DNA of 64,000 bases from Escherichia phage T2, in sequence record NC_054931.1, one strand, 5' to 3'. The position numbers and the translations under genes were made by a program. Shown here piece by piece: positions 910 through 39,211 of the stretch; positions within the stretch are counted from its first letter, which is position 1; every line of letters starts with the position of its first letter. A model generated the notes under the pieces. That model did not search any database. It saw only the letters and a program-made list of their open reading frames with translations, and was not told where the DNA came from.

Positions 910-1167
910 TCACAATGAAGAAAATTCTTTAACTAAAGCCTGTAATGAAGCCTCTATTGGATATCCATTCTTAACTAACATTTTCCTAAACATCACATGT
1001 TTAGGACGATTATATGATATCCACAATTCATACAATTTATCTTTATTATCCCAATGATAGCCTTTTCGTCTAGATGCTATATGAGCTTTTCTAATCTCCG
1101 GATTTTTCCAACTAGCAGCTACTGAATTTGATATAGCTATTTTATATTCAGGTTGATAAAGCAGCAC
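910..1167 (-). CDS. Hypothetical ORF with non-ATG (GTG) start overlapping 3' end of the HNH gene; possibly a frameshifted C-terminal fragment
   Basis: 85-aa ORF; first codon is GTG; frame stays open upstream into the HNH ORF region. Confidence 0.25.
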   Translation of the reverse strand: MLLYQPEYKIAISNSVAASWKNPEIRKAHIASRRKGYHWDNKDKLYELWISYNRPKHVMFRKMLVKNGYPIEASLQALVKEFSSL

Positions 1168-1762
1168 GAACAGCCTTTTGGTGTTTAATTTTATTTTCTT
1201 CGTTATTAAACCATTCCATTGAAGCCATTGAAATTTTTTGTTTTGTTTTAAAATTATTTAATCTTTCTTTGTTATCTTTCCTATTTTTTGCTACTGAAAA
1301 ATATTTTAATGCCCTTTCTCTAGCAGCATTTCTATTTTGTGGATTTGAATAATACTGTTGAAGCCTTTTTGATATTATGTCACTTACATCCTGTCTTATA
1401 AAACTATATTCAGCAGCTATTAAATCAACTTCGGCTAAAGATAAATTTTTATATGTTTTTCCTGACATCATTCTATTTAAAGCATTTAGCATTTTTCCAT
1501 TTTTACCTTTTGCTAATAAGAAATGTGCTTTGAAATGATTAAAATGACTTAAATTAACTAAATTCCATGTAGATTTTAAATATTCAGGAAATATTGATTT
1601 AGGAAGCACGTGGTGTGCTTCCGTTTTACCTGGAGTTTTAACAGTTGAATTCATAGAAATAAAATTAATGTAAGACTTGGCGTCTTCTTCACTCAACGCT
1701 AATTTTTCAACTAATTCCTTTATTAAAAATTCATCATTAATATCAAGTTTAAAATTCTTCAC
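1148..1762 (-). CDS. HNH-family endonuclease-like protein (putative mobile/homing endonuclease) between genes 47 and 46
   Basis: 204-aa ORF with HH...N...H arrangement (EAHHVLPKS ... NLVNLSHFNH) typical of HNH nucleases. Confidence 0.6.
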   Translation of the reverse strand: MKNFKLDINDEFLIKELVEKLALSEEDAKSYINFISMNSTVKTPGKTEAHHVLPKSIFPEYLKSTWNLVNLSHFNHFKAHFLLAKGKNGKMLNALNRMMSGKTYKNLSLAEVDLIAAEYSFIRQDVSDIISKRLQQYYSNPQNRNAARERALKYFSVAKNRKDNKERLNNFKTKQKISMASMEWFNNEENKIKHQKAVRAALST

Positions 1763-3405: not shown

Positions 3406-4604
3406 TTTGTAATAATGTCAAACTGTTCTTTAAAGCAGAAGCTTGAATCTTGATGCTGATACAAAAATTCATATGCTTTTTCACGTTCGCGGTCATAAAG
3501 AGTTCGGTCAGATGACAGTTCTTTAATACGCTCGAATGTTGATTCCATGTCATTTTCATCAAACCAAATGATACCGCTATCATGCGAGGTCAAAGGAGTA
3601 TTATCAACACGGAATTTTAAATTATCACCCGTTGATTTCCAGAAAACAGGAATTGTTCCACATGCACCAAGCTCGAGATGAGTATATTCTAAAGAACGTT
3701 GTAGATATTTTTTGTCCAACTTACTCAACTGATAACCAAATCCGGATTTACTCATGCGTTCAAGCATTTCGCTATTTACATAACGGTCAAGAATTTGCGT
3801 TGGTAAATTAGGAGCAATTTTAATTTGGTCTACTTGATGAAGACGATAATACTCGTATGGAATTCCTTTTTCTTTAATAGGAATGAACGCTGGAGAACGT
3901 TCCAGACCTTCCATAATAGTACTTAGTCCTGCAGGTTTAAGATGTTTTTCGTGAAAATCAAACATCTGATAAAAACCTTTCCATGTAGTCGTACGACCAA
4001 TCCAACGGTTGATATTCATGTTAATTTCAGAAACATCTTTCCAGTAGGTTGACCGAACCTTCGCAATATCCATAGGAGGCTGAAAGTTATATACTGTCGG
4101 CGCTTCTTCAATATCATCAAACAGAGAAACAGTTTCTGGATACCATTCTTTCATCAGAACTTTATTAAAATCACCATTATCAGAATGGCTAAAAATAACA
4201 TCAGCTCGACGAACAGTTTCTTCTAATCCCAAATTTCGACGCAAAGAAAGAGAAGAATGGTCATGTTGATAAACTACAACACGAACCGAAGGTTTAATGT
4301 TATCAATAATTTTTTTATAGTTATTAATAGTGTCTTCTTCAACTGAAGTAGCAGGAACTGAATTGATAATTAGAATATCACAATCATTTACCAGCTTAAG
4401 TGTTTTATCGTATTCTTTTGCCAATAAAACCGGAATTGAAAATGATTTATAATCATGCGCACAGTTACGAGTAAATGATTTATCTTTAGCATAAACCAAA
4501 GTTACTTCATGACCATTTTTAATAAACCAATCACGTTGCTCAAGAGAAAATTTAGTTACACCGCAACCTTCAAGACCTCGAGCCATAAAAATACATACTT
4601 TCAT
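3402..4604 (-). CDS. agt: DNA alpha-glucosyltransferase
   Basis: 400-aa ORF starting MKVCIFMARGLEGCGVTKFSLEQRDWFIKNGHEVTLVYAKDK; length and sequence character of T4 alpha-gt. Confidence 0.85.
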   Translation of the reverse strand: MKVCIFMARGLEGCGVTKFSLEQRDWFIKNGHEVTLVYAKDKSFTRNCAHDYKSFSIPVLLAKEYDKTLKLVNDCDILIINSVPATSVEEDTINNYKKIIDNIKPSVRVVVYQHDHSSLSLRRNLGLEETVRRADVIFSHSDNGDFNKVLMKEWYPETVSLFDDIEEAPTVYNFQPPMDIAKVRSTYWKDVSEINMNINRWIGRTTTWKGFYQMFDFHEKHLKPAGLSTIMEGLERSPAFIPIKEKGIPYEYYRLHQVDQIKIAPNLPTQILDRYVNSEMLERMSKSGFGYQLSKLDKKYLQRSLEYTHLELGACGTIPVFWKSTGDNLKFRVDNTPLTSHDSGIIWFDENDMESTFERIKELSSDRTLYDREREKAYEFLYQHQDSSFCFKEQFDIITK

Positions 4605-4847
4605 TTAATATCCTCATTGTTTTGGTTTATTTTACCAAAAATTTATAAAGCAATATAGGAGCCGAAGCTCCTATCCGCATAATACGCCATACAAAGGCTC
4701 ATTAGAGCTTCTAAATTTTATGCGCTTATATGTTATAGTTCCTTCTGCTTTAGCTTTATCATGAGACTCTTTAAAGCGTCTCATCATTTCCTCTTTAGAG
4801 GAACGAATTTTATTATAATCTATTTCAGAAGTCTGGATGTTCATCTT

Positions 4848-7607: not shown

Positions 7608-7641
7608 TTAATAATACCATAGTTTGAACTTGTTGTAAACA
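7608..7641 (-). promoter_or_regulatory. T4-type early promoter (-35 GTTTACA, 17-bp spacer, -10 TATTAT) with A/T-rich upstream element
   Basis: Forward tgtaaac at 7634-7640 and ataata at 7611-7616; upstream ttgtgaaaaatatttt. Confidence 0.6.
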
Positions 7642-8377: not shown

Positions 8378-8848
8378 TTAATCATGTTTCCACACCCCAT
8401 CGGTATTTGACCAAAGTCGCTGATTATCTGATCCTCGCCACAGCTTTTTAGTCGGAAGATTTTTCTCATACTTCCCATCAATAATAACATCAACATATTT
8501 AAGCATTTCTAGTTGTTTAATATCTTCAAACTTATATCCTGTCCACAACCAAATGCTTTTATTGGGATAAAGATTTTTTACTGTTTGAACAATGCAATGA
8601 ATGACATCTCGATTATCCGGATAGAGAGGGTCTCCTCCAGTTATAGTCAATCCTTCTATATAATCATTATTCAAACATTCAATTAATTGTTCTAGTGTTT
8701 CACCAGTGAATGGAATACCATTTCTAGCATTCCATGTTGATTTATTATAACACCCTTCACATTTATGCAAACAACCTGTAACGAAAAGAACGACCCTGCA
8801 ACCAGGGCCATTCACAAAATCGCAAGGATAAAATCTATCATAATTCAT
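8378..8848 (-). CDS. nrdG: Anaerobic ribonucleotide reductase activating protein (radical SAM)
   Basis: 156-aa ORF with Cys-rich motif CDFVNGPGCRVVLFVTGCLHKCEGCYN; stop overlaps nrdD start. Confidence 0.85.
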   Translation of the reverse strand: MNYDRFYPCDFVNGPGCRVVLFVTGCLHKCEGCYNKSTWNARNGIPFTGETLEQLIECLNNDYIEGLTITGGDPLYPDNRDVIHCIVQTVKNLYPNKSIWLWTGYKFEDIKQLEMLKYVDVIIDGKYEKNLPTKKLWRGSDNQRLWSNTDGVWKHD

Positions 8849-10662
8849 TGATGCTTAACCCTATGCATGATTTCTTTATTTTTGCCGAGATTAAATCCAC
8901 GTTCGTTCGGATTTCCCAAATAACCACACGTTCTTCTTATTGTGTTCATCTTTTTAGGATCAGTTTCTCCACAAATAGAACAAACAAATCCGTTTTCAGT
9001 AGGAGTCATTTCATGGGTACTTCCACATGTAAAACATTTATCTACCGGCATGTTAACACCAAAATAATCTAAATGTTGTGCAGCATAATCCCATACGGCC
9101 TCAAGACCCTTTAAGTTATTTTTCATATCAGGAAGTTCAACATAAGAAATGTGACCACCTGTCGCAATGAAATGATATGGCGCTTCACGAGAAATCTTTT
9201 CAAACGGAGTAATATTTTCTTCTACTGAAACATGGAAACTGTTAGTGTACCAGCCTTTATCGGTAACATCTTTTACGCTTCCATATTTTTCTGTATCGAG
9301 TTTACAGAAGCGATAACAAAGGTTTTCAGCAGGAGTAGAATATAAACTAAAAGCAAATCCGGTTCTTTCAGTCCACTGTTTAAGATGAGCATTCATTTTA
9401 GTTAAAATTTCTCGTCCAATATCACGACCGACAAGAATATTCAATTCGTGAATACCAATGTATCCTAAAGACACTGAACTTCTACCGTTTTTAAATAACT
9501 CAATTATGTCGTCATCAGGTTTAAGACGAACCCCGAATGCACCTTCTTGGTAAAGAATAGGAGCAACAGTAGCTTTAACTCCTTTTAAGGAACTAATTCT
9601 ACACATCAAAGCTTCAAAACATAAATCCATTCGTTCATTGAACAATTCAACAAATTTCTGTTCATTGAACTGTGTTCCAATATAAGAATCTAACGCGATG
9701 CGAGGAAGATTCAGTGTTACAACACCAAGATTATTACGTCCATCAAGAATTTCATTGCCAGTCGAATCTTTCCATACGCCCAAGAAACTACGGCAACCCA
9801 TTGGAGAAACAGGAACAGATGAACCAGTGATAGCTTTATTGTTCTTAGCTGAAATAATATCAGGATACATCCTTTTGCTTGCACACTCTAAAGCAAGCTG
9901 CTTAATATCATAGTTCGGATCGTCTTTATAAAGATTAACACCTTCTTCAACGAACATAACAAGCTTAGGGAAAATAGGAGTTATCCCATCACGGCCAAGA
10001 CCTTTAATGCGATTTTTCAGAATTGCTTTCTGAATCATTCGTTCAGTCCAGTCAGTTCCCGTACCAAATGTAATTGTTACAAAAGGCGTTTGTCCGTTTG
10101 AACTAAAGAGAGTATTTACTTCATATTCATAAGCTTGGAATGCATCGTATACGTCTTTTTCTGTTTTAGATTGAGCATAATTCAACGCATCAGCGATTTG
10201 CCATTTTTCTGCATCCTCAATATGTTTTGCATATGTGCGTTTAACATAAGGAGAAAGTACTTTATCTACATTGGCAAAAGTCGTTCCGCCGTATTGGTGA
10301 GAAGCAACCTGTGCAGTAATTTGTGCCATAATTGCAGTAGCAACGCCAATTGATTTAGGAGTTTCAATCTGTGCATTACCAAGCTTAAATCCGTTTTCAA
10401 GCATTCCTTTTAAATCTACTAAACAGCAATTAGTAAATGGAAGAGCAGGGGAATAATCAATATCATGGAAATGAATAATTCCGCTTTCATGCGCTTTCAT
10501 AATAAAAGACGGGACCATATTTTTGGCAATGTGTTTAGACACAATACCAGCCATAAGGTCCCGTTGAGTTGGAAAAACACGAGAATCTTTATTAGCATTC
10601 TCGTTTAAAAGGTCTTTATTAGTTTTATGAATCAATCCTTCAATTTCTTTTTCAATTGTCAT
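8845..10662 (-). CDS. nrdD: Anaerobic ribonucleoside-triphosphate reductase (glycyl radical enzyme), uninterrupted
   Basis: 605-aa continuous ORF; C-terminal Cys cluster (CFTCGSTHEMTPTENGFVCSICG) and RTCGYLG glycyl-radical motif. Confidence 0.9.
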   Translation of the reverse strand: MTIEKEIEGLIHKTNKDLLNENANKDSRVFPTQRDLMAGIVSKHIAKNMVPSFIMKAHESGIIHFHDIDYSPALPFTNCCLVDLKGMLENGFKLGNAQIETPKSIGVATAIMAQITAQVASHQYGGTTFANVDKVLSPYVKRTYAKHIEDAEKWQIADALNYAQSKTEKDVYDAFQAYEYEVNTLFSSNGQTPFVTITFGTGTDWTERMIQKAILKNRIKGLGRDGITPIFPKLVMFVEEGVNLYKDDPNYDIKQLALECASKRMYPDIISAKNNKAITGSSVPVSPMGCRSFLGVWKDSTGNEILDGRNNLGVVTLNLPRIALDSYIGTQFNEQKFVELFNERMDLCFEALMCRISSLKGVKATVAPILYQEGAFGVRLKPDDDIIELFKNGRSSVSLGYIGIHELNILVGRDIGREILTKMNAHLKQWTERTGFAFSLYSTPAENLCYRFCKLDTEKYGSVKDVTDKGWYTNSFHVSVEENITPFEKISREAPYHFIATGGHISYVELPDMKNNLKGLEAVWDYAAQHLDYFGVNMPVDKCFTCGSTHEMTPTENGFVCSICGETDPKKMNTIRRTCGYLGNPNERGFNLGKNKEIMHRVKHQ

Positions 10663-16649: not shown

Positions 16650-17198
16650 TCAAGCTTCTTTTAAAACTTCAAAAGCTAAACAGAGATGATGCCCCATATT
16701 GACATAATCTGTAGAGCGAGCTCTGACGTAATAATCATCTCCACGAGTACTAAATTTAAAGCATTTAAGGTCTTCTGTATTATTAGTTTTAAAAATCATT
16801 TGTTTATCTAGACCTTTAGCTAATCGAGCGCCTAATGCTAATAATCGTCGTTGATTTTCCCACAAATCCGCAATCATTTGATCGAATGATAATTTCGGCA
16901 TTAGTCGGCCATAAAGGTCATATCCTTTATTATAATTACGAAGGATTTCACTCGCGTTAATACGAGACAATGCTCCAATTTTATTAAGGGCTTTCATGAT
17001 GCGATTAGATAAACTCATTCCAGACCCGTTTGTTCGCTGTAAATGTTTTTCTAATCCAAATCCAATATCAACTTTAAATTTATCTAAAATTTCAGCATGA
17101 ACATCTCTGTCAATAACATTCAAATCCAAAGTTGGGTTAAATCTATGAAAAAATTTATCTGGCTCTCCACGACGAAGTACAGTCCATTCATTCATCAT
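16650..17198 (-). CDS. Hypothetical protein
   Basis: 182-aa ORF. Confidence 0.55.
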   Translation of the reverse strand: MMNEWTVLRRGEPDKFFHRFNPTLDLNVIDRDVHAEILDKFKVDIGFGLEKHLQRTNGSGMSLSNRIMKALNKIGALSRINASEILRNYNKGYDLYGRLMPKLSFDQMIADLWENQRRLLALGARLAKGLDKQMIFKTNNTEDLKCFKFSTRGDDYYVRARSTDYVNMGHHLCLAFEVLKEA

Positions 17199-17361
17199 TT
17201 TTTATTAACTAAAGATTTAATTACTGCATTGACATTATTAATTACTACTGACATATTTTCCTCACTCAATTTTACTAATTACGCGGAATAAGATTGAACA
17301 GACTATATAAGTACCACATATAGATTGAACTAATACCATTCCAAAGAACCAAACAATATTA

Positions 17362-17661
17362 TCAAACAATGTCTGTTTTACGTCGAAAGGACGTAAACTT
17401 ACAGTAATTATCGCCTTTTTCTATTGATGAATACATCTCTGGCGAAATATATTCGCTAAATCTATAACCGTCTTTGAGTTCATATACGGCAATAAACGAT
17501 AAACTAGACCCCTTTCCTTGAGTTCCTGTAAGGGTATTAACTACAGTAACATCATAATCTTTATAATGCATATAATCATTAATTGCGTAATAACCATATG
17601 CAATTACTATACATAAACAACATATCAATAAATTCAATCTTTTAATTATCAACTGTTTCAT
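17362..17661 (-). CDS. Hypothetical membrane-anchored protein
   Basis: 99-aa ORF with N-terminal hydrophobic segment LNLLICCLCIVIAYGYYAI. Confidence 0.5.
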   Translation of the reverse strand: MKQLIIKRLNLLICCLCIVIAYGYYAINDYMHYKDYDVTVVNTLTGTQGKGSSLSFIAVYELKDGYRFSEYISPEMYSSIEKGDNYCKFTSFRRKTDIV

Positions 17662-17716
17662 AATAATCTCAATTAAAAGGGCTTAGAACCATTATACCAT
17701 CCTTGGTATAAAGCGG

Positions 17717-18244
17717 TTATGCGAGTACCGTCTTTAACCGTTCTTCAAACTTCCGAAGAGTATTTTGGCGTTCAGCTCTTTGCTTTTTGTAAGTTTCAAT
17801 ACGCTCTGAAATGAGAGTGTATCGTTCATTTACTGATTCTTTCATAAAATCAGGAATTTCACGAGAAGCTTTAATCTCGTCAAATTTATCAATAACAGCT
17901 TGCTCTTCAGCAATTAAGTTATCATACATCAAAATATCTTTCTTGATGAACTCAATATCTTCTTGAGTTACACGAGATAACTTAGATGCTTTATCCTTTT
18001 TGTACTGTTCGTTAGTATCACGAGACCAGTGTAATGTACGATTTTTATTCGTATTTTTGTAAATTTCTACAATACCAATCTCATCGATAATAACGATCCA
18101 ATTCCAACGGGATTTGTAAATTTGTCCTCCATCAACTGTGATTTCACCTCCGATTGAGATGTCATTAAAGAACTTGCTTTGTGCTTCAGATTTAAATTTA
18201 CCATCGTTGTAATTTACCAGGTTGAAAATATCTTTAGCGTTCAT
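17717..18244 (-). CDS. Hypothetical protein (start placed at MNAKDIF, downstream of the early promoter)
   Basis: ORF track 17717..18304; the first 20 codons overlap the promoter at 18268-18302. Confidence 0.5.
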   Translation of the reverse strand: MNAKDIFNLVNYNDGKFKSEAQSKFFNDISIGGEITVDGGQIYKSRWNWIVIIDEIGIVEIYKNTNKNRTLHWSRDTNEQYKKDKASKLSRVTQEDIEFIKKDILMYDNLIAEEQAVIDKFDEIKASREIPDFMKESVNERYTLISERIETYKKQRAERQNTLRKFEERLKTVLA

Positions 18245-18267
18245 TTTCTGTTCATCCGTAGTTGATA

Positions 18268-18302
18268 GTTGTATAGTACCACAGAGGAACGGTCTTGTAA
18301 AC
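18268..18302 (-). promoter_or_regulatory. T4-type early promoter
   Basis: Forward tgtaaac (rc GTTTACA) at 18296-18302, 17-bp spacer, -10 rc TACTAT at 18273-18278 preceded by TGG. Confidence 0.6.
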
Positions 18303-18304
18303 AA

Positions 18305-18619
18305 CTAAAAGAAACTTCTTTCACAATTTTTTCCACTGAACCACGCGCTCACTGCTTTCTTAGTCTCAGGAGCAGTGTTATCCATAAACCATTCAAAGGC
18401 AGCCTTTTTATGATTCTGGAGGGCTTCTCGGGCTTTAATCTGCTCACGGTCTATTAACACTAACATATGAGCCTTTCTTGTCACCAGGGGCTTCTTATGA
18501 TTTTTTGAATATTCCCAATCATTTGTCCATCGCATCGTTGTTGCGAATTGAAATACAGCTTCTTTAATCTTAGTTTCGTAAATTTCACGAGCCTTTGAGT
18601 ATAACATCATTACCTCCAT
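18305..18619 (-). CDS. Hypothetical protein
   Basis: 104-aa ORF. Confidence 0.45.
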   Translation of the reverse strand: MEVMMLYSKAREIYETKIKEAVFQFATTMRWTNDWEYSKNHKKPLVTRKAHMLVLIDREQIKAREALQNHKKAAFEWFMDNTAPETKKAVSAWFSGKNCERSFF

Positions 18620-18708
18620 TTACCAGTTTAATTCTAGTCATCTTTTTGATGGCAGTCCATATAATCTATTTCTGAACTGCCTTTTTGTCATAGAAGGCCT
18701 CTTATGAA

Positions 18709-19689
18709 TTATTTCAGAAGAGTAACCTCAGCGATTTCTTCCCAACCGTTTTTGTCGGTCATAATAAAGTCAGCAAGATAAAGAGCAGTACGCAGTGAAA
18801 CATTGCGTAAACGGTTAACATTGACTTTCATCCATGATAATGCTTTATAAGTTTCTTCATCAGAAAGACCGCGCTTTTGCATCATGTCAGTTGAAAGAAT
18901 AACATCTTCAACCCTGACCATAATTTCTTCATTAGTGTGAACACCCAAATCCAAATAAACTGAGCGGGACACTAATGCTTGTAAATGTGGAGCAAGTTTA
19001 GTACCACGGTCTAATTCGCGGTCAATGTCAACGTTTGTGATAAAAACAATCGTTCCTTTAAATTCAAACTCACGCTCAATGCCTTTTTCTTCTAAGTAAG
19101 AAGATGCAGTGCTCCAGCAGACTTTACGGGTCTCTCCAGTGTCCAGAGCAGCTTTCAGAAGATTAAGAATATCCATATCAGAGAAAACATCCACATCATC
19201 AATCAAAAGGACAGAATTCTCTTCACGATTATTCCAGAGCTGTTCATAAAGACCGATACCAGAGATTTTACCGTTAATGCTTTTATATTCAATGTATCCA
19301 ATATCATTTGCTTTATTTAAAGCTTTATCTAAAGAATACGTTTTACCAATACCTGCTGCTCCCGAGATAATTAATGAACGAATGTTTCCGTTAATAATAC
19401 CATTCGTCATCATTCCCATAACATTAAATCTTTTATTAATGCGGGTTTTCATATCTTCATATGATTCTTTAACTTCTTCAACTTTTACACCATCATATGA
19501 AATGTCTGATTTGTAAACCCAAACACCGCGACGTTTACCGTCAATTTCAACAAAAACTTTACCATCTCCTTGTGCATCTACCGGAGCATTATCTGGGAAC
19601 CATTCACCTAAGAGCTCAAAAGTTCCAGAGATTTCTTTACCGAAGTAGATACCCTTATTGATAGTTACAGTTTTCATTTTATTCTCCAA
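18709..19689 (-). CDS. P-loop ATPase (AAA-like)
   Basis: 326-aa ORF with Walker A GAAGIGKT and Walker B LLIDDVD. Confidence 0.65.
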   Translation of the reverse strand: MENKMKTVTINKGIYFGKEISGTFELLGEWFPDNAPVDAQGDGKVFVEIDGKRRGVWVYKSDISYDGVKVEEVKESYEDMKTRINKRFNVMGMMTNGIINGNIRSLIISGAAGIGKTYSLDKALNKANDIGYIEYKSINGKISGIGLYEQLWNNREENSVLLIDDVDVFSDMDILNLLKAALDTGETRKVCWSTASSYLEEKGIEREFEFKGTIVFITNVDIDRELDRGTKLAPHLQALVSRSVYLDLGVHTNEEIMVRVEDVILSTDMMQKRGLSDEETYKALSWMKVNVNRLRNVSLRTALYLADFIMTDKNGWEEIAEVTLLK

Positions 19690-19707
19690 ATCCGTATCAG
19701 TTGATAG

Positions 19708-19741
19708 TTGTATAGTACCATAAAGCTTTATGCTTGTAAAC
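19708..19741 (-). promoter_or_regulatory. T4-type early promoter
   Basis: Forward tgtaaac at 19735-19741, -10 atagta at 19712-19717; upstream ttgtgaaaaattttt. Confidence 0.6.
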
Positions 19742-19761
19742 CATTTTGTGAAAAATTTTTG

Positions 19762-19790
19762 AAATAAAAAAGGGGACCTCTAGGGCCCCC
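19762..19790 (-). terminator. Rho-independent terminator downstream of ORF 19800..20300
   Basis: Hairpin ggggacc-tcta-gggcccc, followed on the minus strand by TTTTTTATTT. Confidence 0.6.
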
Positions 19791-19799
19791 TTTATGCTT

Positions 19800-20300
19800 T
19801 TATTCCATTTCTATTATATGCATGCTCTTTTTGCTATCAAAATATATGTTTTTAACTGTTAACTCCGAATTAATTGGCAATAAAAACTCTCTTTCATAAT
19901 CCACCATACAAAGATTATCATAAAGCTTATTAAGCTTATTATCATCAGTCTGGCTAGATTCTTCAATTGCGATTAAATTTTCTAAAATTTCAATCATAGC
20001 AGTTGAATAGTCAAAAACGTTTGCATTTTTTAACACTATTAAAACATTAGTCATATAGCGTTCTGCTGCAAATGTTTCAGCTATATGAGATTCACTACTA
20101 AAGGAAGTTATTCTTTTAAATTTGATTCTCCTATTAACTTCAAACTTATAAGATAGTACTTCCTCTATTGTAAGTCCTCTAAAAAGTACGTCTTTAATCT
20201 CAAGTTTGTCTTTAATGTAATCATTAACACGCTTATGATTAAAATCATTAATTTTGTTGCCAAGGCATTTCATTAAAATATGCATTGTGTTTCTCTTCAA
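19800..20300 (-). CDS. Hypothetical protein with R / S-x-S / E-x-E motif order (candidate mono-ADP-ribosyltransferase-like)
   Basis: 166-aa ORF (first codon TTG; ATG start MHILMK 5 codons in); motifs VLFRG, TSFSSES, YEREFLL. Confidence 0.3.
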   Translation of the reverse strand: MKRNTMHILMKCLGNKINDFNHKRVNDYIKDKLEIKDVLFRGLTIEEVLSYKFEVNRRIKFKRITSFSSESHIAETFAAERYMTNVLIVLKNANVFDYSTAMIEILENLIAIEESSQTDDNKLNKLYDNLCMVDYEREFLLPINSELTVKNIYFDSKKSMHIIEME

Positions 20301-20329
20301 TTTTTAAAGAACAATTAATTAACTACAAA

Positions 20330-20363
20330 TATATTATAATATGCTTTATGATAGAAGTAAACA
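20330..20363 (-). promoter_or_regulatory. T4-type early promoter
   Basis: Forward agtaaac at 20356-20362, 17-bp spacer, -10 rc TATAAT at 20333-20338. Confidence 0.6.
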
Positions 20364-20382
20364 ACTTTGTGAAAAAATTTTT

Positions 20383-20410
20383 GAAATAAAAGGGGAGCCC
20401 GAAGGCTCCC
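20383..20410 (-). terminator. Rho-independent terminator downstream of ORF 20413..21426
   Basis: Hairpin gggagcc-cgaa-ggctccc; on the minus strand followed by CTTTTATTTC. Confidence 0.6.
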
Positions 20411-20412
20411 TA

Positions 20413-21426
20413 TCATTTATAATAACTTCGGTGGTTTTCAAGATAAACCTTCTCAAGGAAGTCATCCCAGAAACCCATGTCTACTTTTTGCTGCATACCG
20501 TTCTTAGAAGCTTCAGTAGATGCTGCTTCTACTTGATCGACCACATCTTCCAAAAACTCTTGAACCGTTTTAAATGGATGTTTACCCAACTTCACGTCGA
20601 GAATAAATGGAGCGTCTTGAAGTGGATAAACCAAGTCACCAGTTTTGTAAATTTCCAATAGTTGAAGTCCACCACGACAAGCATGGCTCAGAGCTTTCCA
20701 GTCAATGCCTTCGTTGGCTTCGGCCTTACGGGCACGTTCACCATATTCAGCATCTAATTTGTTCAGTGACTGCTTAAGCTCAATAAGAGAAAGCGTTGTC
20801 TGATATTTACGACCCAATACAGTGTAGAACGTTTGTGGGCCTGTTTTCTCATGATTATGGAACACCCATTCACAGAATTCGTTTTCTGGAAGACGATGCT
20901 TAATATCTTCAACTTTAGTACGACGCTGCTTAATAGAACCATCTTCTTGGTAATCAACCCATTGCTCGGGGATTTGATTAACTACTTTCAATACATCACG
21001 TAATGCAGCCAAACGAGAACCCTTGACACCGTATTTAGAAGCTTGCTTACGGACATATCCTAAATATGATTTCATGTTAGTCGTATAAAAACGAGAACGG
21101 TTGTCTTGAATAAACTTCCACACATCAGGCAAATCAGATTTAACCACTAGTTCAGGTTGAGTGTGAAGCATATCTAACGCTACAGTTTCACCATCTGCTG
21201 CTAATTTAAAGAAATATTTAAGACTGTATAGTTCATGGTCAATATCATCTTTAGTGTTTTTAGATGATGTGTTGTTAGTGTTTTTGCTCATGTGCTCTTT
21301 GACATTTCCGATAAGAATATCGCGAGCAGGAGGAACAAAAATTTCTTTAAAATCTACATCAGATTCTGGGGTAGAAGTTCCATAAAGATGACTACCAAAA
21401 TAGCTTTTCATTACTGTTTTCATCAT
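20413..21426 (-). CDS. Nucleotidyltransferase-fold protein (Pol-beta superfamily signature)
   Basis: 337-aa ORF with N-terminal FGSHLYGTSTPESDVDF (G-S ... D-x-D signature). Confidence 0.5.
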   Translation of the reverse strand: MMKTVMKSYFGSHLYGTSTPESDVDFKEIFVPPARDILIGNVKEHMSKNTNNTSSKNTKDDIDHELYSLKYFFKLAADGETVALDMLHTQPELVVKSDLPDVWKFIQDNRSRFYTTNMKSYLGYVRKQASKYGVKGSRLAALRDVLKVVNQIPEQWVDYQEDGSIKQRRTKVEDIKHRLPENEFCEWVFHNHEKTGPQTFYTVLGRKYQTTLSLIELKQSLNKLDAEYGERARKAEANEGIDWKALSHACRGGLQLLEIYKTGDLVYPLQDAPFILDVKLGKHPFKTVQEFLEDVVDQVEAASTEASKNGMQQKVDMGFWDDFLEKVYLENHRSYYK

Positions 21427-21872
21427 TCAGCCTTATATTCAATAACAGGACATACTTTAGCTTTACGAACTTTTAAAAATTCAACGATAATCGATTTCTT
21501 AGGTTGAATAGGAGGTAAACCTTTATACGCCCTATCAATATTTTCTACGTGTAAAGCATAATCCTTTTTCCATTTATAATCTTTATATTTTTCACGCAAA
21601 TGTGCAGGAATAACAAATGAACCGATAATAAGTAAAACAACCAAAAGCGCAAGTATAAATGCCGATGGAAGAAGAGTCCATAAACTACCGAAAATAAGCC
21701 AACGTTGTAGGCTTTCTGCACAAATAATTGTTAGCCCTACGAGTATAGCACACCCAAAAATAGAAACGAAAAATGTAGGAGGCAATAGACCAAAAATATG
21801 CGCATAGTGTCTTAGGTCGTTGCCATTCATCGTTAAACAGTTTGAATAATTTATAGTGCCAAGAGTTTTCAT
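21423..21872 (-). CDS. Hypothetical integral membrane protein
   Basis: 149-aa ORF with two long hydrophobic segments; start overlaps stop of downstream gene. Confidence 0.5.
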   Translation of the reverse strand: MKTLGTINYSNCLTMNGNDLRHYAHIFGLLPPTFFVSIFGCAILVGLTIICAESLQRWLIFGSLWTLLPSAFILALLVVLLIIGSFVIPAHLREKYKDYKWKKDYALHVENIDRAYKGLPPIQPKKSIIVEFLKVRKAKVCPVIEYKAE

Positions 21873-21884
21873 TAATAATCATAA

Positions 21885-22917
21885 TTATCCTTTCATTGAA
21901 GGCGTAACGGTTGTTAAATACTTAATCATAGCTTCAGCTTCTGATTTTGATAATGAAATTTCTCCATTGTTTTGACGAATAGAAATAAAATCCGGATGAC
22001 GGTCACCACCAGCTTTTAAAACACATATAAGTATCAACTTCGCCTTCAATATTTGAAATGATTGAAGCAGTTCCACATGAATGCGGTTTTTGATAAATCA
22101 ATACAGCTTTTCTTCCACCGTTTGACTGTTCATAGGCTTTTAATACATCAAGCAAATCAGTTCTTTTATCAATAGCTAAAATGTTATTTTCATCTTCAAT
22201 GTTAAATCCTTCGGATACTTCATAAAGCGTTACCCATAAATCACCAATGTCAAAACAGCATTTACTTTTCCACGGCTTTCAAGAGTATGACAAATTTTCT
22301 TGATTTCGTCATAACTCATTTTAATAATATCATCTCCTTGACTAAGGAAGATGTCATTTTTAAATTCAACACGAATTAAACCACTTCCACTTGAAATAAA
22401 CATATTTCCTCACTTTGAAATCATAGTTGGAATAACAGAATCAAGATAAGTCTTTAGTGCAATAGCTTCGTCTTTGTTTAATGTAATGATATGCGATCGA
22501 AAATCGTCAATTTGACGAATAGATACTACATCTCCCTCTTCATAGCATTTTGAAACATTTAAAATAGTTTCATCATTCTGATTACAGGAGTTAGTAATAA
22601 TAGCATTACATTTTTAAACCATTTTAAATTATGTTTTCTTTTAGTAGAATCATAAAAATATTTAATGTTAGTTATAAAATTATCCCAATTATTAATTGAT
22701 AAGCACATTGACTCGCTTTTAATATTAAATCCTGGGCATGAAGAATAAAAATGAATTTTATGCTCATCATTAATGCTTACAATTTTATCAGTGTAAGCAT
22801 ATTCAATTTGGGTTAAACGAACAATTTCACTAGGCGTAATATAACATATCATCTTCTTGCGTCAAACGATACATGTTATTTACTTTTTCGATCGCTAATT
22901 CACCAAAAAGCACACTA
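21885..22917 (-). pseudogene. Disrupted region: two tandem related genes each broken by frameshifts at homopolymer runs
   Basis: Protein-like translation continues across three frames; shared C-terminal segment (DVVSIRQIDDF...KTYLDSVIPTM vs DFISIRQNNGE...IKYLTTVTPSM); the middle segment has no start codon. Confidence 0.45.
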
Positions 22918-23099
22918 TCTTCTAATACTAATCGTTTCATATTGATTCTCTTCGACTCACTCATAATTACATACTCCTCTGAATCATATCAATAATGTTA
23001 TTCACCAAATTATAAGTAAACATTGGGTAATTATATTGAATCATCACATACACAACAAACAAAACTTTCATTCTCTTCTCCTTGGCAGTTGACAAGATT

Positions 23100-23129
23100 A
23101 CTATACCATAACCTTGCCAACTTGTAAAC
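23100..23129 (-). promoter_or_regulatory. T4-type early promoter
   Basis: Forward tgtaaac at 23123-23129, 17-bp spacer, -10 rc TATAGT at 23100-23105. Confidence 0.5.
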
Positions 23130-23294
23130 CATTAAATGACGTTTTCGATAAAATTCTGAAGCTTTGTATGAGCATCAACCATGATTTTCATTTCTTCTTT
23201 GGCGAAAGCTATACCTCTTTCACGAGAAGAACATTCATAGTCAGAAACTGCATTAGCATATTCTTCAATTAGCTTCATTAAAAACATCTGTTTT

Positions 23295-23489
23295 TCAGTT
23301 TTCATTATTCCACCTAATCATTTCAAGATATTGAACTAACTTAGCTTTAGATTTATCCAAATCCCTTTTAGCTGCTTCTATACCGTCGTATGAATATCCT
23401 TCACAATGCTCAACTGCTAATTGATATGAATCTATTTCAATATCACGTGCTAATTTAATGATTTTTTCAAACTGTTCACGTGTTAGCAT
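23295..23489 (-). CDS. Hypothetical protein
   Basis: 64-aa ORF. Confidence 0.4.
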   Translation of the reverse strand: MLTREQFEKIIKLARDIEIDSYQLAVEHCEGYSYDGIEAAKRDLDKSKAKLVQYLEMIRWNNEN

Positions 23490-23491
23490 AA

Positions 23492-23710
23492 TTAAACTCT
23501 CGTATTATGATCGATAATTTCATCAAGAAACATATCTAACGCTTCTAAAGCATTATCAACTTTAGCTTCAAGTTCTTCAATACCTGATAAGGCAAAGTTA
23601 ATGCGTTCCTCATCTGCTTTACGAATTAAAGCTACCAATTCCTTAATTTTATCCGCTTGTTCGATACTAATCATTATTCCACCACATATGAAAGAGAGAA
23701 TATTGCACAC
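23492..23710 (-). CDS. Hypothetical protein
   Basis: 72-aa ORF. Confidence 0.4.
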
Positions 23711-23862
23711 GCCATGTGAGTTGCAACTTCATCACACATATTATAACGTTTCTTGAGAAGTTCTACAAGTTCTTCACTAGTAACTTCATCCATGTCGACG
23801 AAAAAATCACCATTAATGATGACGTAGATATTTCCTTCTTGATTAAGTGCTTCAATTTTCAT
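23674..23862 (-). CDS. Hypothetical protein (start at MKIEALN, downstream of the promoter)
   Basis: ORF track 23674..23907; the upstream ATG lies inside the promoter. Confidence 0.4.
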
Positions 23863-23887
23863 GATGTTCTCCTCTTTATCCGATAGT

Positions 23888-23920
23888 TGTATAGTACCAC
23901 AGCTCAAACGGAAAGTAAAC
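23888..23920 (-). promoter_or_regulatory. T4-type early promoter
   Basis: Forward agtaaac at 23914-23920, -10 atagta at 23891-23896. Confidence 0.6.
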
Positions 23921-23925
23921 CGGTA

Positions 23926-23953
23926 AAATGAAAAAAGTCTCCCGAAGGAGACT
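23926..23953 (-). terminator. Rho-independent terminator downstream of ORF 23958..24344
   Basis: Hairpin agtctcc-cgaa-ggagact; on the minus strand followed by TTTTTCATTT. Confidence 0.6.
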
Positions 23954-23957
23954 AATG

Positions 23958-24344
23958 TTATTCGAGGGAAAGAAGATACTTACTCTGGTAAAACATTCCA
24001 GTAATATCATCTATCGTGCTTTGGATGGCTGGAGGCATTTCTTTATAAATGCTGTTAGATTGGTCTAGTATGCGATCAATCATTTTAATTGTGTCGGTAG
24101 GAAGTTTACTGGCATCTGGAATTGAAGGTGTGTATTTTCTACCAGAATACCCCAAATATTGCTCACAAAATTTATCAATCAAATCTGGCAACTCGGAAAA
24201 AATAAAATCGTATGCTTTGTGTCTAGCATAACTTTTAGTTTCAAAATGTGCAGAATGAAAATAAGCTTGTGCAGCCATTAATAAACCTAAGTATTCATCT
24301 GCCTTTGAAGGTTTTCCACTTTGTGAAAAGTCGCTGAATTTCAT
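23958..24344 (-). CDS. Hypothetical protein immediately downstream of rI
   Basis: 128-aa ORF; start overlaps the rI stop. Confidence 0.55.
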
Positions 24345-24634
24345 TCAGTCTCCAATTTAATTTTCATAATTCTAGCGTATGATTGTGCCATCTCCGCGCC
24401 TCGCTCTATACATTCAAAATCAGAAGAGCACGGGTCATTTTTATAGGTCGTTCTCATAAAACTATAGAATTGTTCAGACGATTCTACGCTTTTATTTTCA
24501 AAAAGTGTATAAACGTGCCTAATACCAGATTCCATAAATTTATCAAAATGAGGATCGACATTCGCTTCAATTGATGGAGATAAAACAAATGACAATCCTA
24601 GCATGGCAAATAGTACCGTTGCTTTTAAGGCCAT
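24341..24634 (-). CDS. rI: Lysis inhibition regulator rI (periplasmic antiholin-type protein)
   Basis: 97-aa ORF MALKATVLFAMLGLSFVLSPSIEANVDPHFDKF... with signal-anchor-like N-terminus; matches T4 rI as I recall it. Confidence 0.85.
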   Translation of the reverse strand: MALKATVLFAMLGLSFVLSPSIEANVDPHFDKFMESGIRHVYTLFENKSVESSEQFYSFMRTTYKNDPCSSDFECIERGAEMAQSYARIMKIKLETE

Positions 24635-24646
24635 AAAGGCCTCCTA

Positions 24647-24859
24647 TCATTTTTGTCCTGTATTTACTTTATGCCGATGCACGGCCTTAACTTTATCAAG
24701 GTATTTTTCAAAATTTCGCAATCTAGTATAGTCTGCCGGAGATTGGTTAAGTGATACTTCTCGACGCAAAGCTGAAATGATATTTCCAACTTCCCTACGA
24801 ATTTCATCTAATTGAAGCACAGTAAGATTGCGAAGTTGCTTTTCAGTTAATTGTAGCAT
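24647..24859 (-). CDS. Hypothetical protein
   Basis: 70-aa ORF between tk and rI. Confidence 0.5.
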
Positions 24860-24901
24860 ATATACCCCTTTAGTTAGATAAACCTATTTATAACTTTTGC
24901 A

Positions 24902-25483
24902 CTAACCGAGCTTTTTAGTTAATTCATTCCAATGTTTTCTACACAAAGAAACATAAATTTCATCACCAATACAGATTTGATTACCTTCTTTAACTGGTGT
25001 TCCATCTTCCATTAATCGAGCTGTCATAATCGCTTTTTTACCGCAATGACAAACTGCCTTTAGTTCAATAAGTTTATCTGCAATCGCTAAAAGTTCTTTA
25101 GAACCTTCAAACAATTTTCCAGCGAAATCAGTCCTTAATCCATAAGCCATAACAGGAACATTATATGTATCAACAATTCGGCTCAATTGATGCACCTGTT
25201 CAGTTTTTAAAAACTGAGCTTCATCTACAAATACGCAATGAATATCTTTTTGTGCTTCAGCCCATTTATAGAACTCGAAAATATCCATATCATCTGTAAT
25301 AATATTCGCTTCCTGCTTAATTCCAATGCGAGAAACGACTTCACAGACAGAATCGCGAGTATCAATAGCAGGCTTAAGAACTAATACACTCATTCCACGT
25401 TCTTTATAATTATGTGCAGCAGTCAAAAGAGAAGCAGATTTTCCAGCATTCATTGCTGCATAAGTAAAAATTAAACTCGCCAT
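24902..25483 (-). CDS. tk: Thymidine kinase
   Basis: 193-aa ORF with P-loop AAMNAGKS and C-terminal zinc-binding Cys pairs (CHCGKK ... CRKHW). Confidence 0.9.
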   Translation of the reverse strand: MASLIFTYAAMNAGKSASLLTAAHNYKERGMSVLVLKPAIDTRDSVCEVVSRIGIKQEANIITDDMDIFEFYKWAEAQKDIHCVFVDEAQFLKTEQVHQLSRIVDTYNVPVMAYGLRTDFAGKLFEGSKELLAIADKLIELKAVCHCGKKAIMTARLMEDGTPVKEGNQICIGDEIYVSLCRKHWNELTKKLG

Positions 25484-25855: not shown

Positions 25856-26021
25856 ATATTAATTTCCAGAAGTTTTAAAATAATTCGCTTTTGCTTAAAT
25901 ATTTCCACAGTTAAATGATCAGTATCTTTTTGACCAATTCCAATGGCAAAACCTTTATTAACAGCGAGTTCAATTAAATTATCAAGTTCACGTAACACTT
26001 CATATTGTAACTCAGAACTAT

Positions 26022-26234
26022 TCATTTCGGTTTACCTTCTTTAACGAAATCTGGATAAGGATAAAATCCCGAATAAAATCCTTCACCTTTATGATTGATG
26101 CATCCTTTATTAGAACAATAGCACCAATAATCGAAATCACAAACCATTTCATCGTTGCATAAAGCAAAAACAACCGGCCATTTACACTTTTCGCAGTGGG
26201 CATTTTTAAGAATACTAGTTTGGCTCATAACCAT
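26022..26234 (-). CDS. Hypothetical Cys-rich small protein
   Basis: 70-aa ORF with multiple Cys (CEKCKW...CNDEMVCDFDYWCYCSNKGCINH). Confidence 0.4.
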   Translation of the reverse strand: MVMSQTSILKNAHCEKCKWPVVFALCNDEMVCDFDYWCYCSNKGCINHKGEGFYSGFYPYPDFVKEGKPK

Positions 26235-31000: not shown

Positions 31001-32312
<1,312 letters not shown>

Positions 32313-34509: not shown

Positions 34510-34544
34510 GTTGTATAGTACCATGGAAGAACAGGGATGTAAAC
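34510..34544 (-). promoter_or_regulatory. T4-type early promoter
   Basis: Forward tgtaaac at 34538-34544, -10 atagta at 34515-34520; upstream ttgtgaaaaaattttt. Confidence 0.6.
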
Positions 34545-34599: not shown

Positions 34600-34900
34600 A
34601 ATTAAAAGATAGGATAATATATTATAAAGGGTATAAACTAAATGATGCCTAGAGAGGTCTGGAAAGGCCTAGATACCAAAAAGCCCCAACCTTTCGGTCG
34701 GGGCTAAGCCTTGCGGCAACCTTGTCGGGGTTCCACCTGCTAAGGCAAGTGTTTGTACGAAACGCCGGGATTTGAACCCGGTTATTAAGTAGTTGACGCT
34801 ACTCAATATTTTTAAAAGGCCATATCTCGACCATATCCGAACGTTCCGTCAAAAACGCTACTCGGCTTACAGCAAAGATATTTCCTCGAATCGATAATTC
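34600..34900 (-). ncRNA. Candidate structured stable RNA region next to the tRNA cluster
   Basis: No convincing ORF; GC-rich hairpins (gccccaacctttcggtcggggc) and a tRNA T-arm-like element (accgggttcaaatcccggc on the minus strand). Confidence 0.25.
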
Positions 34901-35456: not shown

Positions 35457-35460
35457 TATT

Positions 35461-35535
35461 TGGCGGACGTGATAGGATTCGAACCTATAACCAATCGCTT
35501 AACAGGCGATCGCTCTGCCATTGAGCTACACATCC
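35461..35535 (-). tRNA. tRNA-Asn (anticodon GUU)
   Basis: Manual fold: acceptor GGATGTG/CACGTCC, anticodon loop CTGTTAA, T-arm GGTTCGAATCC, encoded CCA. Confidence 0.65.
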
Positions 35536-37555: not shown

Positions 37556-37738
37556 TTAACCTTTAGAAATTTTATCCATAACGATAGCGATTAAACCAAT
37601 TAAAAATGCTACTACAAGTGAAAACACATTTTCTGCTGTAGTCAATAATCCGCATATAAATCCAACAAACATTGAAAAACTAAAAGCGGAAGCAGAAATT
37701 GCAATAGCAACATTTCGAATTAATTCACAACGTTTCAT
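37556..37738 (-). CDS. Hypothetical small membrane protein
   Basis: 60-aa ORF, almost entirely hydrophobic. Confidence 0.45.
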   Translation of the reverse strand: MKRCELIRNVAIAISASAFSFSMFVGFICGLLTTAENVFSLVVAFLIGLIAIVMDKISKG

Positions 37739-37762
37739 TTTATTCTCCTCAGTAGTTGATAG

Positions 37763-37795
37763 GGTAATAATATCACCACCCTATCTAAAAGTAAA
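37763..37795 (-). promoter_or_regulatory. T4-type early promoter
   Basis: Forward agtaaac at 37790-37796, 17-bp spacer, -10 rc TATTAT at 37767-37772. Confidence 0.55.
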
Positions 37796-37806
37796 CAGTT
37801 TATAAA

Positions 37807-38115
37807 CTATTTTATTCCGCGTGATGCAATTGTATTCTGCCGTTTAGCACCAGTTTGTTTAAAGTCATGATTGTCGATTTGATCGGTACGAGCAACTCCG
37901 AATGATGATTTGATCTTAGCTTTAGATCCTTTAGTTATAGAAATAAACATCTCGGAAGCCCCTTTCTTAAAGTCCGAGGCGATTACTTCAACGCCGTTCT
38001 TAGCAAGTGACTTCAGAATTGCCTCTGCATACTCATCGTCAAGACTCGTCTGAGTATTAATAACGAATGTCTTTGGCGCAGCCGCTTCATTGATAAATTC
38101 TTTAAATGTTTTCAT
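37807..38115 (-). CDS. Internal-protein-like (ipI-locus) protein with MKTFKEF leader
   Basis: 102-aa ORF MKTFKEFINEAAAPK...; leader with I-N-E cleavage-type motif; own early promoter. Confidence 0.6.
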   Translation of the reverse strand: MKTFKEFINEAAAPKTFVINTQTSLDDEYAEAILKSLAKNGVEVIASDFKKGASEMFISITKGSKAKIKSSFGVARTDQIDNHDFKQTGAKRQNTIASRGIK

Positions 38116-38199
38116 TTTATTTTCCTAATTAATTTTGATGAGGTAATAGTATCACAACTAAAACCCTATGTAAACAACTTTGTGAAATTATTTTAAATC
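38111..38199. repeat. Copy 1 of duplicated 89-bp regulatory/5' module (gene start, RBS, early promoter)
   Basis: Near-identical to 38438..38526 except a central ~20 bp. Confidence 0.7.
38146..38176 (-). promoter_or_regulatory. T4-type early promoter
   Basis: Forward tgtaaac at 38169-38175, -10 atagta at 38146-38151. Confidence 0.6.
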
Positions 38200-38437
38200 T
38201 TCTAATCGTTTCTTCATCTTAGAACCGTTCTTAGCGATTTCGCCTGCATCAGAGCATAATGCTAAAAGCGCTTTAACTTTAGTTTGGTCTCCTTTAAAAG
38301 ATGAAGGATCAACAGCAGCAAGTTCTTTAATACGAGAGAAAAGACGCTCAGCTTCAGCTAAAGCCATTCCAAGTTTTACTTCCATACCATGGGAAGATTC
38401 AGTAATAGTAGTTTTTGTAGCAAACTCTTTGAAAGTT

Positions 38438-38442
<5 letters not shown>
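38188..38442 (-). CDS. Internal-protein-like (ipI-locus) protein with MKTFKEF leader, paralogue of 37807..38115
   Basis: 84-aa ORF MKTFKEFATKTTITESSHG...; leader with I-T-E motif. Confidence 0.6.

Positions 38443-39211
<769 letters not shown>

Follow-up and report, generated by a model that had tools for sequence, protein, structure and literature searches.

Cassettes of the promoter-early stem-loop type bracket an exchangeable ADP-ribosyltransferase-like gene in the early region of phage T2

Cassettes proposed to act in modular gene shuffling in T4-type phages were named promoter-early stem-loops (PeSLs) and combine an A/T-rich tract, an early promoter, an adjacent stem-loop and a Shine-Dalgarno (SD)-ATG sequence (Arbiol 2010, PMC2839356). 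The term was later extended to the T-even subgroup by comparing T4 and PST, which gave the consensus TTTACW-N17-TAYWAT and placed the stem-loop immediately before the promoter (Comeau, Arbiol and Krisch 2014, PMC4122927). In the published RB49 ORF192/phi1 example, a gene lies between two PeSL copies in one phage and a single copy is present in the relative (Arbiol 2010, PMC2839356). Early promoters of the T4 type carry GTTTAC at -36 to -31 and an A-rich UP-like tract (Nolan 2006). Here, a 64,000-nucleotide stretch of Escherichia phage T2 (NC_054931.1; "the window") was analyzed, in which copies of such a cassette flank a gene resembling ADP-ribosyltransferases (ART). These repeats are probably PeSL-type regulatory punctuation of the early hyperplastic region from nrdC to tk, located on the minus strand and doubling as recombination homology.

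The region is early and transcribed counter-clockwise in the order nrdC - mobD.x - rI - tk. All of its genes, and the cassettes and promoters described below, lie on the minus strand, which is the coding strand here. Positions 17000-25000 match several GenBank records of T2 and of its synonym SV76 at 100% identity. In T2, nrdC.10 (18709-19677) and nrdC.11 (20413-21426; nucleotidyltransferase, Pfam RlaP, PHROG 388) are separated by a gene for a 161-aa protein (19800-20285), annotated as "ModA" or "RNA polymerase ADP-ribosylase" and referred to here as ART-like. By BLAST of positions 19300-20800 against T4 (record L003), 19300-19774 aligned to 1001-1475 and 20343-20800 to 1426-1880. T4 holds one cassette at this junction, and its 50 bp (1426-1475) align to both T2 copies, i.e. 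to the direct repeats at 19725..19774 (copy A) and 20343..20392 (copy B) that bound the indel. The tract of ~50 bp shared by the two flanking cassettes comprises the T-tail, the UP-like block, the -35 and part of the spacer. T2 has ~620 extra bases relative to T4, with the same pattern relative to RB32, and the single T4 cassette corresponds to the upstream hairpin of T2 fused to its nrdC.10 promoter. This topology parallels that of the RB49 ORF192/phi1 example. The cassette pair at 19.7 and 20.4 kb brackets the ART-like gene exactly and is a base-level synteny breakpoint in 4/4 panel genomes (T4, DalCa, SH7 and RB32) and in 551 of 585 related records. Contiguity was scored when one place in a record covered at least 80% of the query; the whole junction (19.7-20.4 kb) is carried contiguously by only 34 of the 585.

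Three composite cassettes were found, at 20410-20333, 19793-19712 and 23953-23891, each consisting of a terminator hairpin, a T-tract and a T4-type early promoter (GTTTAC-N18-TAnnAT). The first opens with terminator T1 after nrdC.11 (20380..20410), a scan match with hairpin 20410-20393 (GGGAGCC-UUCG-GGCUCCC, fold -15.1 kcal/mol) and a T-tract; this terminator was annotated as such by the depositors of SV76, DalCa and Kha5h. The adjoining segment (20333..20379) contains an A/T-rich UP-like block (AAAAATTTTTTCACAAAGTT) and the predicted early promoter of the ART-like gene, with -35 GTTTAC at 20362-20357 and -10 TATAAT at 20338-20333 (TTTACT-17-TATAAT in the scan, score 10/12). The second cassette opens with terminator T2 after the ART-like gene (19761..19793; hairpin 19793-19769, GGGGGCC-CUAGA-GGUCCCC, -16.4 kcal/mol, followed by a T-tract), the top minus-strand terminator of the scan. 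Here AAAAATTTTTCACAAAATG lies between the T-tract and GTTTAC-N18-TACTAT, and the segment 19678..19760 carries the UP-like block, the predicted nrdC.10 early promoter (-35 at 19741-19736; TGG-TACTAT with the -10 at 19717-19712), the CTATCAAC box and SD-ATG. From -35 to ATG, the nrdC.10 upstream region of T2 is near-identical to that of T4. The third cassette (23891..23953), between rI.-1 and mobD.5, has hairpin 23953-23936 (GUCUCC-UUCG-GGAGAC, -10.8 kcal/mol), a T-tract and GTTTAC-N18-TACTAT. A T-run follows each of the three hairpins, which were the top minus-strand sites in a terminator scan of 15-30 kb; terminator-like sites in this interval numbered 16, compared with 6.7 +/- 2.7 in shuffles. 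A generic sigma-70 scan barely exceeded shuffles (86 vs 66 +/- 9); generic promoter counts were left unused and the GTTTAC-N18-TAnnAT pattern was used instead. At the e.8/msp1 copy, the depositors of T4 record L13089 annotated the same -35/-10 and a stem_loop. An earlier note on this DNA had described these recurring hairpin-plus-early-promoter cassettes and their shared strings, and all of them are present. Its UUCG-type loops apply to two of the three hairpins, 19793-19769 having the loop CUAGA, and the gap from stem to -35 is 15-30 nt, in place of its ~20 bp.

The two strings shared by the promoters are both promoter sub-blocks that recur far above chance. The 22-mer AGTTGATAGTTGTATAGTACCA was found exactly at 18260, 19699 and 34502 and with 19/22 matches at 23878 (chance expectation 0 in a shuffle control), and the 13-mer CAACTTTGTGAAA exactly at 7640, 20362, 38175 and 38502 (expectation 0.29). 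Chance similarity as the source of the repeats was ruled out by these controls. Read on the minus strand, the 22-mer corresponds to TGG-TACTAT (extended -10) plus the first ~13 transcribed bases (ACAACTATCAACT), and the 13-mer to the block TTTCACAAAGTTG, leading into the -35 GTTTAC. Orthologous promoters of T4 and RB32 likewise carry the 22-mer in several copies, and it therefore marks a conserved paralogous promoter family, no T2 peculiarity. A 13-mer copy with one mismatch (CCACTTTGTGAAA) occurs at 24316-24328 within the rI.-1 coding region, with no strong promoter hexamers noted adjoining it. Alignment of ten early promoters of the window gave the extended consensus TTTAAAAATTTTTTCACAAAGTT-GTTTAC-...-CTGTGG-TACTAT-A.A.CTATCAA...GGAGAATAAAATG, which is of the T4 early-promoter type. 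A conserved CTATCAA(C/A) box was observed ~6-9 nt downstream of the -10, at 19701-19708 and at the equivalent spot in most early promoters.

Judged by sequence, the T2 copies have every feature by which PeSLs are recognized. The T4/PST promoter consensus is matched by all three, as TTTACT-17-TATAAT (20361-20333), TTTACA-17-TACTAT (19740-19712) and TTTACT-17-TACTAT (23919-23891). Ahead of the -35 lies ATTTCAAAAATTTTT(T)CACAAA at 20362 and 19741 and a shorter version (TTTTTTCATTTTACCG) at 23920, and the predicted hairpins, each with its T-run, adjoin the promoters upstream. An SD-start codon sequence is found for nrdC.10 (GGAGAATAAAATG) and for the ART-like gene (GAAGAGAAACACAATG), a ribosome-binding site is annotated for mobD.5, and the setting is intergenic within a hyperplastic region. 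Indel endpoints inside the element were seen at both ART-flanking copies and at the internal-protein (IP) and e.8 copies; the copies at 23920, 18302 and 7640 showed no such association. The assignment of the cassettes to a type proposed for modular shuffling in T4-type phages, as the earlier note had it, thus agrees with the PeSL literature (PMC2839356, PMC4122927).

In relatives that lack the full T2 stretch, the nrdC.10/nrdC.11 junction is either T4-like (empty, one cassette and no gene, the state of most relatives) or filled with different cargo. Besides that of T2, at least five further cargo layouts were found, the alternative layouts spanning 880 (empty), 1142, 1360, 1620 and 1980 bp, with an own early promoter for each unit. 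SH7 carries an open reading frame (ORF) of 66 aa, DalCa a 49-aa ORF and a DUF4031 gene, Geo both the 66-aa ORF and the 49-aa/DUF4031 pair, and LF73P3 the ART-like gene together with the 49-aa/DUF4031 pair. In DalCa, the cargo is flanked by copies of a 13-nt direct repeat (CTATCAAAACAAA) that includes the CTATCAA(C/A) box.

The ART-like gene was found, at 94-100% identity, in 42 records, among them those of Moonvirus (Moon, CF1, KM16) and Gelderlandvirus (STML-198). The module as a whole is ~98% identical in Moonvirus and Gelderlandvirus phages, compared with 67-76% for the genes that flank it. In Moon and STML-198, identity to T2 stays at or above 95% between the -35 of the ART promoter and the end of the gene, extending in Moon through the downstream terminator and T-tract. 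The neighbouring genes of these two phages are divergent from T2 (nrdC.11 ~67% identical, nrdC.10 50-85%), and the steps in identity therefore fall inside the cassettes. These alignments indicate that the mobile unit is promoter-gene-terminator, with crossovers in the conserved regulatory blocks. Together with the repeat-bounded indel and the alternative cargos, this cross-genus module bears out the idea that the cassettes delimit the ART-like gene as exchangeable. In STML-198 (record L008, 3001-3065), the cassette downstream of the ART-like gene has lost a part reaching from the 3' half of its terminator stem to a point shortly ahead of the -10. A T2-type nrdC.10 leader and SD are thereby fused to an unrelated ORF of 59 aa, and the module's transfer has left a scar.

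The same delimitation had been claimed for the nucleotidyltransferase gene, and this does not hold. nrdC.11 belongs to the backbone: all four panels (T4, DalCa, SH7 and RB32) contain it, as do nearly all of the relatives sampled. It has a cassette at its 3' end only and overlaps the next gene upstream (a 149-aa ORF at 21423-21872). Its candidacy as exchangeable cargo was rejected, as it is conserved everywhere with backbone-level identity (67% in Moonvirus/Gelderlandvirus). A nucleotidyltransferase-domain match was reported for 5/6 nrdC.11 orthologues (Nolan 2006).

A mechanism can be proposed from this layout of Rho-independent terminator hairpin, T-tract, A/T-rich UP-like block, T4-type early promoter (GTTTAC-N18-TAyTAT, in most cases with TGG preceding the -10), conserved CTATCAA box where the transcript begins, and SD-ATG. 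The primary role of such a cassette would be to close one early transcription unit and open the next. As the copies share near-identical blocks, these could also serve as portable homology patches for the very active recombination system of the phage; T4 recombination has a short homology requirement (cited by Arbiol 2010, PMC2839356), with which this fits. At the nrdC.11/nrdC.10 junction, two cassettes with ~50 bp in common would flank a self-contained promoter-gene-terminator module. Recombination in the shared tract, either excision between the copies or insertion via one of them, possibly through a circular intermediate, would yield the ~620-bp difference between T2 and T4. It could likewise have produced the alternative cargo arrays and the recent spread of the ART module to Moonvirus and Gelderlandvirus.

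Alternatively, the cassettes may be ordinary transcription punctuation, alike through the strong T4 early-promoter consensus, and coincide with breakpoints by survivorship, gene-sized indels being viable only between genes. Several results point in this direction and weigh against recombination at the cassettes as a general rule. Breakpoints were compared in ~41-kb panels of T4, DalCa, SH7 and RB32, over 85 junctions from a simple gene call. Of the endpoints of indels of at least 100 bp, 101/110 lay within 25 nt of a gene junction, whatever the elements there. In this small panel, with heuristic promoter, terminator and gene calls and low power, junctions with both promoter and terminator were broken in 4/5 cases vs 28/80 for the rest (one-sided Fisher p=0.064), promoter junctions in 8/16 vs 24/69 (p=0.20) and terminator junctions in 6/8 vs 26/77 (p=0.03). 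Among spacers of at least 40 bp, which gave no enrichment, the counts were 10/19 vs 11/24 (p=0.45). Beyond the between-gene survival of indels, there is no clear general breakpoint enrichment at cassettes, the associations being weak or non-significant, and the claim of a general hotspot was dropped. Many breakpoints are insertions of homing endonucleases or introns (mobB, mobC, mobD, I-TevII, a seg-like gene), and others use homology in SD-ATG sequences, tRNA T-arms or IP targeting sequences.

Three of the cited sites are moreover stable across ~500 genomes, and the same promoter blocks are kept at orthologous T4 and RB32 sites. The third cassette (23888-23953) was contiguous in 498/501 records with a 901-bp query, its length differing by at most 21 bp in sampled rows. 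The 22-mer promoter at 18261 (18273..18302), which has no strong hairpin adjoining, was contiguous in 497/655, being stable in essentially all relatives of at least 95% identity, and the 13-mer promoter at 7611..7640 in 500/506. The coincidence of cassettes with breakpoints that the earlier note had offered as its own check was therefore obtained at the ART locus, and not at these three sites or as a significant enrichment over the window. Several copies are stable and most breakpoints of the window involve junction sequences of other kinds; a cassette is thus neither enough for plasticity nor required for it. As an explanation of the ART locus, punctuation and survivorship are nonetheless unlikely to be the whole account. 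The ART indel is bounded by the ~50-bp repeat itself, the identity steps of Moon and STML-198 fall in promoter/terminator blocks and not anywhere in the ~120-bp spacers, and further indels are bounded by duplicated regulatory blocks of 30-79 bp.

Repeat-bounded indels exploit whichever conserved punctuation is duplicated locally, which at the ART junction is the PeSL blocks. The terminator hairpin at 34673..34708 (TAGCCCCGAC-cgaaag-GTTGGGGCTT, fold -20.3 kcal/mol, annotated as a stem_loop in L13089) has duplicated copies of 30-36 bp that bound insertions of 519-1214 bp in SH7, RB32 and DalCa. The neighbourhood of the e.8/msp1 early promoter with the 22-mer (34515..34544) is plastic (contiguous in 348/719). 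In the tRNA cluster, indels at 35458-35491 are bounded by the common T-arm sequence (GGTTCGAATCC), and SD-ATG homology bounds those at 31969-31998 and 19671-19689. At 37.7-38.6 kb the window copies belong to the T-even IP locus, where indels are bounded by repeats of the -10, leader, SD-ATG and capsid-targeting sequence of 44-79 bp. The locus contains two 13-mer promoters, one of an internal-protein gene at 38146..38175 and a second IP-gene promoter at 38473..38502.

The IP locus (37700-38600) is the most plastic, or hyperplastic, site of the window, only 10/765 related records being contiguous. It includes a tandem unit of 327 bp (38095-38203 vs 38422-38530, 89% identical), in which the second IP promoter lies. 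The IP promoters show inverted repeats across the -10, such as GATAGGGT...ACCCTATC at 37767-37796 and GATGAG...CTCATC near 38473-38502, and homology runs through SD-ATG into the capsid-targeting sequence.

It is highly improbable that nearby homing endonucleases in relatives drive the exchange, with double-strand-break repair co-converting the flanks, including the ART module. Candidates are at hand: T4 has mobD beside nrdC.11, and in RB32 a seg-like gene separates nrdC.9 from nrdC.10. Homing endonuclease genes or the nrdD intron also make up several of the insertions that only T4 has in the window, and Comeau 2014 (PMC4122927) described this as a parallel route of plasticity. The ART junction of T2, however, lacks an endonuclease gene, the ART-minus state consists of one clean cassette, and the high-identity tract of Moon and STML-198 stops inside the cassettes, not reaching nrdC.10/nrdC.11 as co-conversion would. 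A dedicated site-specific recombinase recognizing a GGGG...CCCC stem-loop and moving cassettes integron-like, as speculated by Arbiol 2010 (PMC2839356), can practically be discounted: two of the stems here are indeed G/C runs, but each copy has a different stem (GGGAGCC, GGGGGCC, GUCUCC), crossover falls in the A/T-rich/-35 block and not in the stem, and no recombinase or integrase gene occurs among the annotations inspected, the whole window not having been scanned for one.

Several other differences in gene content were observed in the window. At 4595-4620, 8828-8848 and 10124-10127, T2 has clean empty sites without the T4 mobB, mobC and nrdD intron carrying I-TevII, and at 21427-22385 the 149-aa ORF and small ORFs occupy the position of T4 mobD. 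An 860-bp T2 segment (886-1745), missing from DalCa, SH7 and RB32, has an 8-bp direct repeat (TTTAAACT) at its flanks. It encodes a 168-aa ORF (1148-1654, minus strand) that gave no Pfam match but contains the motif HHVLPKS, which recalls HNH endonucleases. In the tk.2/tk.3 region, a 367-bp insertion relative to T4 (25857-26223) contains two small ORFs that RB32 has as well. It is delimited by overlapping stop/start codons, where neither a promoter nor a terminator is found, and illustrates cassette-independent gene gain or loss. At ~17198-17204 the window reads T x6, compared with T x7 in deposited T2/SV76 records. This shortens the nrdC.6 homologue frame from 201-206 aa to 182 aa (ATG at 17198), and the annotation downstream is shifted by one base.

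The cargo protein matched PHROG 832 (E 1.8e-23) and aligned with T4 ModA (28% identity, E 6e-11) and ModB (27%, E 1e-13). Its LFRG, SFSS and ERE are in register with LWRG, SAS/SFT and EQE of ModA/ModB (R, S and ExE positions), and ~37 N-terminal residues are absent relative to these proteins. Pfam and PDB sequence searches with the 161-aa protein gave no useful match, and the label is drawn from the PHROG 832 match and from aligning the protein directly with T4 ModA/ModB. On this basis, "ART-like" is a fair description of a putative ModA/ModB-like ADP-ribosyltransferase paralogue. Tentatively, promoter-ART-terminator may be a circulating, self-expressing accessory module that recently crossed between Tequatrovirus, Moonvirus and Gelderlandvirus via PeSL homology. 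Its product would be a third Mod-like ADP-ribosyltransferase, shortened at the N terminus and directed at a host or defence target of its own. The nrdC.10/nrdC.11 junction might then be an integron-like array site for early host-takeover or counter-defence genes.

The literature search returned no description of the T2 ART module, of the nrdC.10/nrdC.11 locus with T2 or ART, or of the occurrence in Moonvirus/Gelderlandvirus. The T2 copies are uncatalogued in the PeSL papers (PMC2839356, PMC4122927), and neither nrdC nor T2 occurs in the 2014 text. The locus offers a base-resolved example, in a classic model phage, of regulatory punctuation that doubles as recombination homology, so that accessory genes would bring along what they need to be expressed. 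For the PeSL idea it is also a caution, as identical cassette architecture can be evolutionarily inert and most gene-content differences in the window arose via other routes (homing endonucleases, SD-ATG homology, tRNA arms, IP targeting sequences). Its practical value lies in annotation of the T-even early region and in flagging a mobile ModA/ModB-like gene; no new question is opened.

Compared with known systems, the module resembles morons (Hendrix 2000, per PMC2839356) as a lone accessory gene with its own promoter and terminator between backbone genes. Morons, however, are not thought to move via regulatory sequences and have no conserved flanking repeats, whereas the regulatory blocks of the ART module appear to be the recombination substrate. 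In relation to the integron gene cassette, an analogy drawn by Arbiol 2010 (PMC2839356), the ART repeat is a promoter/terminator and not an attC-like site. The elements of the T-even IP locus (Repoila 1994, as described in PMC2839356) resemble the cassettes in that exchangeable small genes are flanked by early promoters of the T4 type, whose leader, SD and targeting-sequence blocks are conserved; their inverted repeats are weaker, A/T-rich and overlap the -10, and homology enters the coding region, whereas in the ART cassettes the G/C-rich terminator is a separate element that precedes the promoter. With PeSLs (PMC2839356, PMC4122927), the T2 cassettes share the composite anatomy, the intergenic hyperplastic position, a gene with two copies vs a single copy in a relative, and crossover in the A/T-rich region. 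They differ in that the T2 cargo is an ART paralogue and not an ORFan, and in that several T2 copies are evolutionarily stable. Element type, T-even anatomy and shuffling model are already published (PMC2839356, PMC4122927), and the T2 ART module is a fresh, tidy instance of them, not a new kind.

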